Both the position numbers and the translations under genes were made by a program. 64,000 bases of DNA, from contig DAIDIY010000048.1 of the NCBI GenBank assembly GCA_027451625.1, positions 26,917 to 90,916 on the forward strand, in the 5' to 3' direction. The notes beneath the pieces were generated by a model, which saw only the letters and a list, made by a program, of their open reading frames with translations, ran no database searches and was not told where the DNA came from. Source of the stretch: Candidatus Daviesbacteria bacterium (GTDB lineage: Bacteria > Patescibacteriota > Microgenomatia > Daviesbacterales > UBA10151). Positions 13,551 to 50,988 of this stretch are shown here, in pieces; the first letter of the stretch is position 1; each line of letters begins with the position of its first letter.

Positions 13551-13622
13551 GGCAGGGTAGCTTAGAGGAAGAGCAACACATTCATAACGTGTAGGCCATG
13601 GGTTCGAATCCCATCCCTGCTA
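13551..13622 (+). tRNA. tRNA with anticodon CAT (elongator Met, or Ile2 if lysidinylated)
   Basis: Acceptor GGCAGGG/CCCTGCT (G1-U72 wobble), anticodon loop TTCATAA, T-arm ATGGG-TTCGAAT-CCCAT. No 3-GC run in the anticodon stem, so it is not the initiator. Confidence 0.65.
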
Positions 13623-13662
13623 CTTTTTTAGTGGTATATTAACTTCAAAAATAAAATCTATG

Positions 13663-13734
13663 TTGCGGGGCTGGGATTCGAACCCAGGACCTCGAGATTA
13701 TGAGCCTCGCGAGCTGCCACTGCTCTACCCCGCG
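13663..13734 (-). tRNA. initiator tRNA-fMet (CAT)
   Basis: Minus-strand sequence CGCGGGGTAGAGCAG...CTCATAA...CCCCGCAA is near-identical to E. coli tRNA-fMet, including the C1-A72 mismatch. Confidence 0.85.
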
Positions 13735-15159: not shown

Positions 15160-15177
15160 ATTCATAAAAGTATAGAG

Positions 15178-15249
15178 TGCGCCTGCTTGGGATCGAACCA
15201 AGGACATCTACTTTATAAGAGTAGCGCTCTACCACTGAGCTACAGGCGC
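15178..15249 (-). tRNA. tRNA-Ile (anticodon TAT/UAU)
   Basis: Minus-strand read GCGCCTG-TA-GCTCAGTGGTAGAGC-G-CTACT-CTTATAA-AGTAG-ATGTC-CTTGG-TTCGATC-CCAAG-CAGGCGC-A. The 7-nt anticodon loop has UAU at positions 34-36. Confidence 0.7.
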
Positions 15250-24330: not shown

Positions 24331-24590
24331 TGCTTCCATTTCCGCTTTGGAAACCTATAGAGATAGAACTTCACAGACCAATATATGGACCTACCTATAT
24401 CTATCAGAGATAATTTGTCTTTTTCAGTTAATATTATTCCTACCCAAGGAGAAAAGCTTTCGGTAATATATTACTAGAAACTACTTAAGTGTTATAATTA
24501 CGTTCTAAAAGAAAATAACAACTCATAAAGTAGCTATTTTCAAAATACTCGAAGTTATTTAATATAAAGTGTACTTTCAAAATTAAATAT

Positions 24591-24888
24591 TCCTCGATAG
24601 CTCAACGGTAGAGCGGCTCGCTGTAAGCTATAGAAATATTTCGTATAGAGATATACAATTTGCAGCTTCCAAGAGAAATTTTGGAATGATAACTGGGTTA
24701 ATTGCGAAAAGCCTATAAAAATGGTAATCCGCAGCCAAGGGATAAGTTATTTATTCAAGGTTCAGAGACTATACGCCCGGATCCTAAGTCTGGTAAATAT
24801 AGATAAGGATAAGAGATAGTCCAAGCCTTAAGGAAACTTAGGGGCACTTGTAACGAGAAGGTTCCTGGTTCGAATCCAGGTCGAGGAG
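24591..24888 (+). tRNA. tRNA-Asn (GUU) interrupted by a group I intron in the anticodon loop
   Basis: 5' exon TCCTCGA-TA-GCTC-AACGGTA-GAGC-G-GCTCG-CTGT (24591-24624). 3' exon TAA-CGAGA-AGGTT-CCTGG-TTCGAAT-CCAGG-TCGAGGA-G followed by CCA (24851-24888). Acceptor stem is a perfect 7 bp with G73 discriminator; ends match E. coli tRNA-Asn. The spliced loop would be CTGTTAA. Confidence 0.8.
24625..24850 (+). ncRNA. group I self-splicing intron (IC3-like) within tRNA-Asn
   Basis: 226 nt. 5' exon ends in U and the intron ends in G. P-like AATTGCGAAAAGCC (~24699-24713); Q AATCCGCAGC (24726-24735); R GGTTCAGAGACTA (24759-24771); S AAGAGATAGTCC (24811-24822), giving P7 GACUA/UAGUC. A candidate IGS GCAGC (~24657) can pair with exon GCUGU using a U-G pair. 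Confidence 0.75.
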
Positions 24889-25345
24889 CCAAGCTTGACG
24901 ATCAGCGAAATTTAAGATCGTATCAAAGGGTTTTATAGCGTCATATCGGACTAATTTGCTTTATACCCTTAGGTTCGATAGTACAAGATTGATCAACTAC
25001 CTTCTTTCTTCAACTTCAGCACTTTTGAATAATTCATAAGCATTGTTTGCCAGTTCCAAAAGGTATTTAGACGTGATGTAGTAGTTATCCTCAGCTTCTT
25101 GCAGTAAAGCAATTCGGGTATCAATATCTGCTAACTGATCACGGAAAATTGATAAAATCTGTCATACTCATTGTCAGTAATTCTCCAAAGTATCTTACAT
25201 CCGGAAACTCTTGAATTATTAAAGAGAAATCCAAGGCTAGGGGAGCAAAAGTATAAAAAGATCTCTCAAACCCCCTAAAGTCTTTTTAATTATAAGCATT
25301 TTTCCTTGACACAAACTTTTAGTAGAGTAATACTAAATAGAGAAG

Positions 25346-26760: not shown

Positions 26761-27828
26761 TTAATTGAAAAACTGAATAGGTAAATAAATAGAAAAGATT
26801 GATCCTTTTCCAGGAGTACTCTTTACAGAAACTGTTCCTTTATGTCGATATATTATTTGTTGAGTTATATATAAACCTAGTCCAAGTCCCCTTATATATG
26901 ATGTGGAAGGTCTTTTTTCTCTGAAGTGTTGATTAAATATTTTATGTAAATTATTTCTCTCTATACCAAAACCAAAATCTTGTACTGAAATACGAATTCT
27001 TCTCTTAGAAGAAGTTAAACTTACCTTTATATCACTATCTTTAGGGGAATATTTAGCAGCATTTGCCACTAAATTAATTAAAGTTTGACTTAGACGATAC
27101 TTATCTCCATATACAAAAATATCTGCTTTTTCTAGATCTGTTTTAAATATTATTTTGTGATCCTTAATAACTAAACGCAAGTTTTCAATAATGCTTTTCA
27201 CAAATCTAAGAATATTAATAGATTCATCTCTATAAGTAAATTTTCCACCTTCTATTTTATTTAGATCTAATAAATCATTGATAAGATTCGTTGCTCGGTC
27301 AGATTGTTCAATTATATCTGATGAATATTCGGCAAGTTTAGGAAAATTTTTCTGTACTAATTTTTTATTTAAAATTTCCGCAAATCCCCTTATCGAAGCT
27401 AGTGGATTTTTTAATTCATGAGATGCAAAATTAATAAAACTTATTTTTTGCATATTAGCCCTTATCAGAGATTCGCTTACTAAGCTAATAAAAAAACCTT
27501 CTATTATAAATATGACTAACAGAATTAGATCTTCAGCTATTCCTAAACGAATATTATGGGTTTGAAAAAAATACGTATTTATAAGACCCAGCGACAAAGT
27601 CGTAATAACCCCAGGAATTAATCCTCCATACCAAGCGCTTAACATAACTCCTAACAGTGCTAAATGTAATGAGATATATTTTCCTAAAAATACTTGTGCC
27701 AAAGTTCTTGTAAGGATGAATGAAATGGTAATAATAAAGACAAATCCATATCTAGCCCAATAGCTTTTATTCTGGGAAAAAATATATTTATTAATTAAGC
27801 GTTGTATCTGCTCTTTCCTTAAAAACAT
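26761..27828 (-). CDS. sensor histidine kinase (membrane bound)
   Basis: Four N-terminal TM helices; H-box FASHELKNPLASIRGF; N-box LINLVANAAKYS; G-boxes DFGFGIE and GLGLGLYI. Confidence 0.85.
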   Translation of the reverse strand: MFLRKEQIQRLINKYIFSQNKSYWARYGFVFIITISFILTRTLAQVFLGKYISLHLALLGVMLSAWYGGLIPGVITTLSLGLINTYFFQTHNIRLGIAEDLILLVIFIIEGFFISLVSESLIRANMQKISFINFASHELKNPLASIRGFAEILNKKLVQKNFPKLAEYSSDIIEQSDRATNLINDLLDLNKIEGGKFTYRDESINILRFVKSIIENLRLVIKDHKIIFKTDLEKADIFVYGDKYRLSQTLINLVANAAKYSPKDSDIKVSLTSSKRRIRISVQDFGFGIERNNLHKIFNQHFREKRPSTSYIRGLGLGLYITQQIIYRHKGTVSVKSTPGKGSIFSIYLPIQFFN

Positions 27829-27883: not shown

Positions 27884-28978
27884 TTACTCTAAATAATCGC
27901 GCAGCTTTTTTGCTCGAGTGGGATGACGAAGTTTTCTTATAGCCTTAGCTTCAATCTGTCTGATTCTCTCTCTTGTGACCCCGAACTCTTTGCCTACTTC
28001 TTCCAGAGTTCGTTGTTTACCATCTTCCAGTCCAAATCTTAGCTGCAAAACTCTTTTTTCTCTTGGCGAGAGTGAGTCTAACACCTCATCTAAATCTCCT
28101 CGCAGTAATTCCTGAGCTGCTTGTTGGTCTGGTTTCAATCCTTGAGCTTCAATGAAATCTCCCAGTTCTGAATCTTCTTCATCTCCAATTTTTGTCGCAA
28201 GAGATGTCGGTTCTTGTGATACTTTAATAATCTCACGAGCTTTAGTAGCGTCTATTCCTAAGGCTTTTGCAACCTCTTCAGGTGTTGGTTCTCTACCTAA
28301 ATCTTGCATCAATTTTCTCTGTGCTCGATTAAAACGATTAATAGTCTCAACCATATGTACTGGAATCCTAATAGTTCTGGCTTGGTCCGCTAAAGCACGA
28401 GTAATAGCTTGTCTTATCCACCAAGTAGCATAAGTTGAGAACTTAAAACCTCGTCTCCAATCATATTTCTCAACGGCCCTCATAAGCCCCATATTCCCCT
28501 CTTCAATTAAATCTAGCAGACTCATTCCTCGACCTACATATTTTTTGGCAATTGAAACAACCAGCCTTAAATTAGCACTAATAAGCCTATCTTTAGCTCT
28601 CCTATCTCCTTTTTCACTTTTTTTAGCAAGCTCTATCTCTTCTGCAGCAGTCAACAAAGATACTCTTCCAATCTCTCTTAAATATTGCCTAACCGGATCT
28701 GAAACATATCCTTCCTCAAGAGAAGCTAGCATTTCTAGTTCTTTTTCTAAATCTGTTGCACCTTTCTCATCGTCAGCAACCTCTTCTGCAGTACTCTCGA
28801 AGACATCAACACCTGAATCAATTAGCTTGAGATAAAAATTATCTAGTTCTTCAATCTTTTCTTCAGGCTTAGGGAAAATCTGCAAAATCTCTTCTTGAGT
28901 CACGAAACCTCGGTCTCTTCCCATTTGTAATAGTTTTTTTTCATCTAGTTGTGCACTTCTTTGTTGACTTTTATTCAT
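27884..28978 (-). CDS. rpoD: RNA polymerase sigma-70 factor
   Basis: Region 1.2 [11 protein letters not shown], region 2 [13 protein letters not shown]...[13 protein letters not shown], region 3 [11 protein letters not shown], region 4 TLEEVG...[18 protein letters not shown]. Confidence 0.9.
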
Positions 28979-33323: not shown

Positions 33324-33416
33324 ATCCTTAGTGTACTTTGGATAACAGCTAGTGTACAGAGACTACTTGAATACAAACACTAAATCTTAAGTTAAAGTTA
33401 ACTGACAATTATCATG

Positions 33417-33803
33417 TGGAGACGGAGGGAGTGACCCTCGTGTGAACTTACAAAATAAAAACACCTACAAGCTTAGCTGATATATTTATAAGTAAAAGAT
33501 GTAACCTATCAGCAGGAAATCATTTACTTGATTCAATATTCTTAATAATCTCAGTTGAATCTGACCAAAATTACTGCATTCTGACTGTTGTACGTATTCT
33601 AAGCTTCCGCCAGAAAAGAAATTCTTAGAATACCGTTATGCTGCTAACGCGTATCCAACTTGAGGCTGGACTAACGCCGCAAACATTTCGGATGCTTTAT
33701 TTTTTAGATTAGCATCTATTTTTGAAACAATATTTTACGAATAATGTTTCCTGTTCGGCTTGCAGTTTTTAAAGTGCGAAGTACATCGAATCTGTACGTC
33801 CCC
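33417..33803 (-). ncRNA. ssrA: tmRNA (transfer-messenger RNA)
   Basis: Minus strand. 5' end GGGGACGTACAGATTCGATG matches the tmRNA 5' consensus (GGGG...GATTCGAC). 3' end has a T-arm-like GAGGGTCACTCCCTC, and an acceptor 3' strand CGTCTCC that pairs with the 5' GGGGACG. Internal tag ORF ...GCA TCC GAA ATG TTT GCG GCG TTA GTC CAG CCT CAA GTT GGA TAC GCG TTA GCA GCA TAA ends in YALAA-stop. smpB lies 1.1 kb away. Confidence 0.75.
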
Positions 33804-50629: not shown

Positions 50630-50988
50630 GCTTTCTCCTGCTCGGGATATAAATATCTTTAGAAAACTTCCAGCACAAAATTTTAATCTTCTATCTTTGT
50701 TTTCTAAAAATGATGGTCGGTCTCCGGACTTATCAAAATAAATTGAATTACCGTTGCGGCACAGTTCTCGAATTACACGAGATTCCCTTCTTTGAATCTT
50801 ATCTGTTGTCTACAGACGATTCACCACAACTGAAATTTACTCCAACTTTTTTTGAAAAACAAGAGGGTAAACACGTTCATACTAACTTGCTAAGTTGTAC
50901 ATCCAAATAAGTCTTATTAATGAGTAATTGATCTACTTTGAACTTCTTGTCACGTATTTTTTCACGCTGTATAAAGATGGAGTAAAGT

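Follow-up and report, generated by a model that had tools for sequence, protein, structure and literature searches.

In a preprint, Williams (2020; bioRxiv 10.1101/2020.01.27.920355) expanded the known classes of tRNA intron, which had numbered 4, to 21. The 'Asn.4Ug' class of that preprint, as cited by Nakagawa et al. (PMC13011429), appears to be the first listing of an intron between positions 35 and 36 of tRNA-Asn. Nakagawa et al. (bioRxiv 2025; mSystems 2026, PMC13011429) described 22 intron-containing tRNA genes in 95 complete Patescibacteria genomes. Group I introns at 35/36 of tRNA-Asn(GUU) were present in 15 of these 95 genomes, and this configuration is the typical tRNA intron of Patescibacteria. 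One Asn and one Asp example showed precise GTP-dependent self-splicing in vitro that was lost when omega-G was changed to C. The introns belong mostly to subgroup IA, with no Patescibacteria tRNA intron assigned to IC in that survey, and four of the Asn introns carry HNH endonuclease genes located in the P1 loop. According to the same authors, such genes are overlooked or wrongly labelled by annotation tools (Nakagawa et al., PMC13011429).

We analysed one 64-kb stretch of DNA, referred to here as the window, and conclude with high confidence that it contains the tRNA-Asn(GUU) gene of a Daviesbacteria-like member of the Patescibacteria, cut between U35 and U36 by a compact, endonuclease-free group I ribozyme of 226 nt. 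The initial annotation of this locus considered both the Asn host and the 35/36 site to be unusual, but these had already been reported by Nakagawa et al. (PMC13011429) and by Williams (2020). Its list of known hosts (Leu, fMet, Ile and Arg) corresponds to what was known before 2020, prior to the expansion of tRNA intron classes in the Williams preprint. It also found a reduced genome surprising as the setting. Because Asn 35/36 introns are typical of Patescibacteria, this is the expected context (Nakagawa et al., PMC13011429).

The window has a G+C content of 35%. The named homologues of its DnaG come from Daviesbacteria, Microgenomates and Patescibacteria only (approximately 64% identity), and its RpoD is 80-81% identical to the proteins at two loci, L088 and L097, from Daviesbacteria metagenome-assembled genomes (MAGs). 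These matches point to a host in the Patescibacteria (CPR), within the Microgenomatia, that is Daviesbacteria-like.

All features described here are on the + strand. The 5' exon of the tRNA-Asn gene (24591-24624, 34 nt; TCCTCGATAGCTCAACGGTAGAGCGGCTCGCTGT) covers tRNA positions 1-35 and its end reads ...GCUCG-CUGU, with G34 and U35 of the anticodon as the last two nucleotides. The 3' exon (24851-24891) covers positions 36-73 and the encoded CCA. Its tRNA portion (24851-24888, 38 nt; TAACGAGAAGGTTCCTGGTTCGAATCCAGGTCGAGGAG) starts with UAA-CGAGA... and finishes with the discriminator G73 at 24888, and the CCA occupies 24889-24891. The two halves are separated by 226 nt and form a perfect 7-bp acceptor stem (TCCTCGA/TCGAGGA). 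The initial annotation had these halves, the gap, the acceptor stem, G73 and CCA correct to the base. The anticodon stem contains a G27.A43 mismatch (24616/24858). Because relatives and an intron-less allele (see below) have the same mismatch, we regard it as a lineage feature and not as damage.

Default ARAGORN reported 11 tRNAs in the 64-kb window, none of them for Asn, and missed the split gene. When introns were allowed (ARAGORN -i), it reported tRNA-Asn (gtt) i(35,226) at 24591-24891, which is the call expected from the split at 35/36 that had been proposed initially. The 75-mer spliced in silico gave a normal cloverleaf in ARAGORN with the anticodon loop CUGUUAA. The exons had been described initially as close to E. 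coli tRNA-Asn, and annotated tRNA-Asn genes are the sole full-length matches of the spliced sequence in E. coli (75% identity). Taking the default and intron modes of ARAGORN together, the 64-kb window has no tRNA-Asn other than the split gene. Scans for promoters and terminators around the gene were uninformative, yielding 6 promoter-like sites where 3.0 were expected and no terminator. When default tRNA finders skip a gene of this kind, the genome is scored as being without tRNA-Asn and completeness estimates are distorted. An overlooked split tRNA-Asn also makes it easy to conclude, wrongly, that a reduced genome lacks a tRNA.

The group I intron (24625-24850, 226 nt) matched the Rfam family RF00028 (Intron_gpI) at 24643-24843 with a score of 80.6 bits (gathering score 50) and E 6.9e-19 over the full model, positions 1-253. 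This match, from a search that the initial annotation had suggested, is far beyond chance. All four core elements claimed from the letters are present: P (AATTGCGAAAAGCC, 24700-24713), Q (AATCCGCAGC, 24726-24735), R (GGTTCAGAGACTA, 24759-24771) and S (AAGAGATAGTCC, 24811-24822). The intron follows the exonic U24624 and ends with G24850, as had been claimed, and comparison with the intron-less allele agrees with this. There is no homing endonuclease gene in the intron, the longest open reading frame overlapping it in the ORF list being 45 aa.

We built a P1-P9 model by hand, using the sequence together with its alignment to the Rfam family. In this model, the 5' strand of P1 (24620-24627) consists of exon nucleotides G31-U35 (GCUGU) followed by intronic AAG. 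It pairs with the internal guide sequence UUUGCAGC (24659-24666), in which G24662 is opposite U35, an assignment based on the hand model and on homologues. The resulting wobble at the 5' splice site, U35 (U24624).G24662 within GCUGUAAG/UUUGCAGC, is U.G in 76 of 76 homologues and the adjoining pairs are found in 76-77 of 77. The P1 loop (24628-24658) is enlarged and holds a small hairpin (GUAUA-GAGA-UAUAC, 24643-24656). Measured on the alignment, this loop is 37 nt long, whereas the median for relatives is 8 nt. P2 (24667-24686) is an 8-bp hairpin with a GAAA tetraloop (24675-24678); each of its pairs covaries, and the loop is of the GNRA type in 77 of 77 homologues.

The P3 5' strand CUGGGU (24693-24698) pairs with GCCCGG (24775-24780), which lies 3 nt downstream of P7. 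Four of the five core pairs of P3 have compensatory changes and the helix is present in the minimum free energy (MFE) fold. The P4-P5 domain (24700-24735), placed with Rfam and the homologue alignment, holds the P and Q elements and is made up of P4 (24703-24708/24728-24733) and a minimal P5 of only 3 bp (24711-24713/24723-24725). P4 has an A24707.C24729 mismatch; 71 of the 77 homologues are Watson-Crick paired at this position. P6 (24734-24736/24759-24761) and the P6a hairpin (24740-24745/24751-24756) together span 24734-24761 and are seen in Rfam, in the covariation and in the MFE fold. The P7 5' strand G-A-GACUA (24765-24771, within the R element) was taken from the Rfam alignment; it is invariant in homologues but was fixed by the search pattern. 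Its partner, the P7 3' strand (24817-24822), forms the S element together with J8/7 (AAGAGA-UAGUCC, 24811-24822; sequence and Rfam).

The P8 hairpin (24781-24810), with AUCCU/AGGAU and an inner GUCU/AGAU, comes from the hand model and covariation and contains a motif, CCUAAG...UAAGG, that resembles the 11-nt GAAA-tetraloop receptor. P9 (24826-24843) is a 7-bp hairpin with a GAAA tetraloop (24833-24836) in which 7 of 7 pairs covary. The final intron nucleotide is omega-G (24850), a position that is set by the intron-less allele, and P10 amounts to 2 A:U pairs at most. P7.1/P7.2 helices are absent between P7 and the P3 3' strand, where just UAC separates GACUA (24767-24771) from GCCCGG (24775-24780). 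The initial annotation had suggested looking for a P1-P9 fold with a guanosine-binding site in P7, and the covariation-backed model provides one. The predicted site is the pair G24767:C24821 in P7, adjoining the bulged A24766, as judged from the sequence and the alignment to the Rfam model. The MFE fold of the single intron sequence contains P2-P6, P8 and P9. Its z-score is only -1.59, which is unremarkable for an AT-rich RNA, and was not used as evidence.

Homologues were sought by scanning 185,579 species-representative genomes with the pattern AGAGACTA-N28-58-ATAGTCC-N20-45-GTAA-N13-RGTTCRA, which returned at least 120 loci. On the 120 listed loci, ARAGORN -i gave inconsistent isotypes and positions and called Thr(UGU) with an intron at 33/34 at 34 of them. 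The exons were instead located by an explicit mapper, which demanded complementary acceptor and anticodon stems spaced as in a tRNA. With this mapper, 84 of the 120 listed loci were tRNA-Asn(GUU) genes split at 35/36, with a 5' exon ending in ...YUGU, an intron ending in G and a 3' exon starting with UAA. This mapping indicates that the same split gene is present in at least 84 other genomes. The split genes listed come from many CPR lineages, namely Daviesbacteria, Gottesman-, Roizman-, Levy-, Collier-, Shapiro- and Beckwithbacteria, Saccharibacteria and Parcubacteria groups. Other listed matches came from MAGs labelled Omnitrophota, Planctomycetes, Limnocylindria, Nitrospirota, Bacteroidetes and others. 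The Daviesbacteria locus L097 has exons identical to those of the window, and its 208-nt intron is only approximately 65% identical over shared columns. The closest intron to that of the window among the matches listed is 73% identical. Global pairwise identities of whole introns did not discriminate lineages and an anchored alignment was used instead.

As a separate observation, the same intron element splits tRNA-Asn genes on DPANN archaeal contigs among the listed loci. The tRNA-Asn genes on these contigs are of the G1:C72 type and have archaeal-type neighbours (a PNO1/KRR1-type KH protein, DUF424 and TYW3). One such archaeal case was dismissed as mis-binning by Williams (bioRxiv 10.1101/2020.01.27.920355).

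To assess covariation, we aligned 77 introns from the listed loci, none longer than 260 nt, with MAFFT. Under the P1-P9 model, 83.7% of cells in these 77 introns were paired, as compared with 35-48% when the partners were slid by 1-3 columns (maximum 47.6%) and 67% in shuffles. The covariation score was 0.483. Slid partners gave no more than 0.172 and shuffles 0.180, and none of the shuffles (0 of 500) reached the observed value. There were 852 cells with double-sided changes compared with at most 312 for slid partners. Every pair in P2 and P9 showed compensatory changes, as did most pairs in P3, P4, P6a and P8, and P6 too had double-sided changes. RNAalifold, run without input from the model, recovered the tRNA anticodon stem across the intron together with P1, P2, P4, P5, P7 and P9. 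A limitation of this set is that P7, omega-G, U36-A37-A38 and the UGU preceding the intron were imposed by the search pattern and filter, and their invariance is not independent evidence; the homologue filter also called for a paired anticodon stem. Apart from P7, on which this set is uninformative, these data show that the helices of the group I fold are backed by compensatory changes in homologues.

To locate uninterrupted forms of the gene, we scanned metagenomes with the 30-nt spliced junction and obtained 7 contigs with uninterrupted genes. On one of these, a groundwater metagenome contig (L126), the intron-less tRNA-Asn consists of window positions 24587-24624 joined directly to 24851-24889, with 100% identity on both sides. 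Rfam recognises this uninterrupted gene as a tRNA (67.2 bits) and its anticodon loop is CUGUUAA. Its neighbours are homologues of rpoD and dnaG, with RpoD having 77% amino acid identity. Another locus, L123, is syntenic with the window over tRNA-Asn, rpoD, dnaG, the tRNA cluster and tmRNA. Because the L126 gene has identical exons joined directly, the boundaries of the intron can be fixed, and this comparison places it at exactly 24625-24850 with no sliding ambiguity. A syntenic intron-less allele with identical exons is direct evidence for gain or loss of the intron among close relatives.

These results also bear on the idea that two unrelated tRNA fragments happen to lie beside a chance group I-like sequence. 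Nothing beyond the failure of default tRNA finders to report a gene speaks for it, whereas the intron E value of 6.9e-19, the perfect 7-bp acceptor stem formed by halves that lie 226 nt apart, the same split gene in at least 84 other genomes and the exact intron-less counterpart all contradict it. We consider its probability to be negligible, and the RF00028 score, the homologous split genes and the intron-less allele refute it.

A different reading is that the gene encodes tRNA-Thr(UGU) with an intron at 33/34, a two-base-shifted interpretation often given by ARAGORN and tFind. The intron ends in ...UUG, and excising 24623-24848 yields the loop CUUGUAA with the anticodon UGU. Nakagawa et al. 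(PMC13011429) reported that tools call Thr for many such genes, as ARAGORN did at 34 of the 120 homologous loci listed here. However, an intron with these limits would end in U (24848) rather than G, and U33, which would then be at the splice site, pairs with A24664 in P1, whereas the conserved U.G wobble in 76 of 76 homologues involves U35. The syntenic intron-less allele reads CUGUUAA, the tRNA body (G73, a UCC... acceptor and a best E. coli match to tRNA-Asn) does not favour Thr, and spliced homologues that have been sequenced are joined at 35/36 (Nakagawa et al., PMC13011429). A Thr gene is therefore extremely unlikely. We exclude it on the intron ending in U, the splice-site U paired to A and the L126 loop, and retain tRNA-Asn(GUU) split at 35/36.

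It could also be argued that the intron is decayed and splices poorly, leaving a tRNA pseudogene while tRNA-Asn is supplied by a gene outside the window. The A.C mismatch in P4 and the tiny P5 are points against activity of this copy, and the 37-nt AT-rich P1 loop and the weak single-sequence z-score fit with decay. The check for tRNA-Asn genes covered the 64-kb window, and a second, intron-less copy may lie outside it, which also leaves room for this explanation. By contrast, none of the catalytic-core elements is damaged, the splice-site wobble and omega-G are likewise intact, the exons are 100% identical to those of a functional-looking intron-less allele, and a single tRNA-Asn gene is typical of Patescibacteria genomes. 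We judge a pseudogene to be very unlikely and reject it on the intact core, wobble and omega-G and on the exons being those of the intron-less allele. The intron of the window tRNA-Asn is very probably functional, and we infer that this copy splices and supplies the tRNA-Asn of the cell. It would be another instance of a probably essential tRNA of a minimal genome relying on a ribozyme for its maturation.

All of the sequence features for two-step, guanosine-initiated group I transesterification are present in the window intron, and the mechanism proposed is this standard group I chemistry. The precursor would be transcribed as a single RNA in which the intron folds to P3-P9 and P1 presents U35.G. 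The P7 pair G24767:C24821 would bind a free guanosine or GTP, which would attack 3' of U35. Omega-G24850 would next take the same P7 site, and the 3'-OH released on U35 would attack after omega-G. Ligation of the exons would give a tRNA with the anticodon loop CUGUUAA. During this process the exons are probably held by the tRNA body, notably the anticodon stem, rather than by a long P10, as in other tRNA introns.

A further idea is that the intron acts as a guanosine/GTP-dependent gate on what is probably the sole tRNA-Asn, tying translation capacity to nucleotide status. Nakagawa et al. (PMC13011429) have floated this earlier as speculation. Persistence at one site across many Patescibacteria lineages and the compact, endonuclease-free form are consistent with such a role. 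Intron-less alleles in close relatives show that the intron can be lost, and this also fits with a gate. We regard a gate of this type as unlikely. It is similarly doubtful that, in an organism poor in protein regulators, the intron is by this means more than a tolerated parasite.

As a comparison, the published Patescibacteria Asn 35/36 introns (PMC13011429) come from the same phylum as the window intron and occupy the same site of the same host tRNA, with the same U-1/omega-G boundaries. Their core strings (GGGUNAAUUGCG..., GGUAAUCCGCAGCCAAG, AAGGUUCAGAGACUA and GAGAUAGUCC) are near-identical to those of the window, the P9 GAAA hairpin is shared and the genes, like that of the window, were missed by default annotation. 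In most of the published Asn introns, a P7.1/P7.2-type insert of 25-40 nt lies between P7 and the P3 3' strand, whereas the window intron has 3 nt there. In the accessible part of Table S5 (PMC13011429), the subgroup label IA1 is given to insert-bearing Nitrospirota Asn introns and to one Patescibacteria Asn row. Inserts of this type also occur at the listed loci L082, L087, L091, L105 and L119, and many other retrieved loci are compact. Because insert-bearing and insert-less forms share the core and the site, the P7.1/P7.2 insert appears to have been gained or lost within one lineage. A further difference is that four published Asn introns have an HNH gene in the P1 loop, whereas the 37-nt P1 loop of the window intron, at the same place, holds no ORF.

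Microgenomatia tRNA-Asp(GUC) introns at 35/36 (GCA_001029755.1, 196 nt, spliced in vitro; GCA_030583725.1, 184 nt) are like the window intron in the class of bacteria, in the insertion position and in being compact without P7.1/P7.2. Their 3' ends (...GAGAUAGUCCAAGCYUWAAGGAAACUUWAGG...UUG) are very similar to that of the window. They differ in the host tRNA, in the third anticodon base and in P4, which is UUCGG/CCGAG as compared with UUGCG/CGCAG in the window.

The compact architecture (IA3-like versus IC3-like) also led us to consider an assignment to subgroup IC3. The IC3 tRNA introns, such as those in cyanobacterial and plastid tRNA-Leu(UAA) at 34/35 and in Azoarcus tRNA-Ile, use the same mechanism, have a similarly small P1-P9 architecture and share with the window intron GNRA loops on P2 and P9 and the CCUAAG...UAAGG receptor-like motif in P8. 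The Azoarcus intron is held together by L2-P8 and L9-P5 tetraloop contacts. By contrast, the insertion site and host of IC3 tRNA introns are other than those of the window intron. The IC3 examples in the accessible part of Table S5 have a J3/4 of ...CAAAUUC... and an end of ...GUCCAGACCACAAAC..., and both regions differ from the window. The core strings of the window match the Asn lineage better than IC3.

Together, these comparisons show that the window intron is a further member of a described and experimentally validated class, in a phylum where it is common. What is added to the published systems is a compact form of the Asn intron that is free of P7.1/P7.2, and an intron-less syntenic allele with identical exons, which is direct evidence for gain or loss among close relatives. 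There is also a hint that this class of element extends well beyond Patescibacteria, including to DPANN archaea.

The tRNA-Asn gene of several close relatives was compared with that of the window. Two metagenome contigs carry a tRNA-Asn without an intron (L126:6528–6604 and L123:9–80), located beside rpoD-dnaG and with exons the same or nearly the same as those of the window; RpoD is 77–80% identical between the window and these relatives. The Daviesbacteria locus L097 has exons identical to those of the window, and its intron, inserted at this site as well, is 208 nt long and divergent in sequence. Presence of the tRNA-Asn intron is thus polymorphic among close relatives.

In relatives, tRNA-Asn closely follows rpoD in the same orientation, with a gap of 116 nt in the Daviesbacteria locus L088. 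In the window, tRNA-Asn (24591–24891) and rpoD (27884–28978) are 3 kb apart on opposite strands, with a histidine-kinase-like ORF (26761–27828) and other ORFs between them. The gene order in the window reflects a local rearrangement.

Other RNA genes were also observed in the window. In most bacteria the AUA codon is read by a CAU tRNA carrying the lysidine modification, not by a UAU tRNA. A tRNA-Ile with a UAU anticodon is found at 15177–15249 (–) (Rfam, 74.5 bits), and near it are two divergent tRNA(CAU) genes at 13551–13623 (+) and 13662–13734 (–). A tmRNA gene at 33414–33803 (–) (Rfam, 90 bits), whose central pseudoknots align poorly, is surrounded by a cluster of Ser/Arg tRNA genes, and this reduced genome has a cobalamin riboswitch at 50698–50843 (–) (Rfam, 51.4 bits).

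Our pattern scan yielded at least 120 loci, and the true number is larger. Going by MAG labels, group I introns at 35/36 of tRNA-Asn are not confined to Patescibacteria, and the resolved cases include Omnitrophota, Planctomycetes, Limnocylindria (Chloroflexota), Nitrospirota, Bacteroidetes, Gemmatimonadales, and Gammaproteobacteria. Some of these automatic labels may be wrong, since one gene of the "Gammaproteobacteria" locus L018 is 68% identical at the protein level to a gene in the window.

The usual intron type in archaeal tRNAs is bulge-helix-bulge, and a literature search found no archaeal tRNA reported to contain a group I intron. Rfam detected group I introns (82–97 bits) on MAG contigs labelled Pacearchaeota, Nanoarchaeota, and Woesearchaeota, at L003:1884–2214 (+), L008, L101:1010–1248, L039:108–326, and L065:2716–2950. 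In L003, L008, and L101 the intron interrupts, at 35/36, a tRNA-Asn(GUU) whose acceptor is of the G1:C72 type (GUCYCKG...). In an alignment of 77 introns, the introns of these contigs are similar to those of Omnitrophota (L022 and L085). Williams (2020; bioRxiv 10.1101/2020.01.27.920355) assumed mis-binning in one such case. L003 and L008 have adjoining archaeal-type genes (a PNO1/KRR1-type KH protein, DUF424, and TYW3), and mis-binning of these contigs looks unlikely.

The P1 loop of the window intron (24628–24658) measures 37 nt on the alignment, whereas the median among 77 homologues is 8 nt, and two mutually exclusive AU-rich hairpins could form within it. In published introns an HNH endonuclease ORF is located in the P1 loop (PMC13011429), and the enlarged loop of the window intron may be a deletion remnant.
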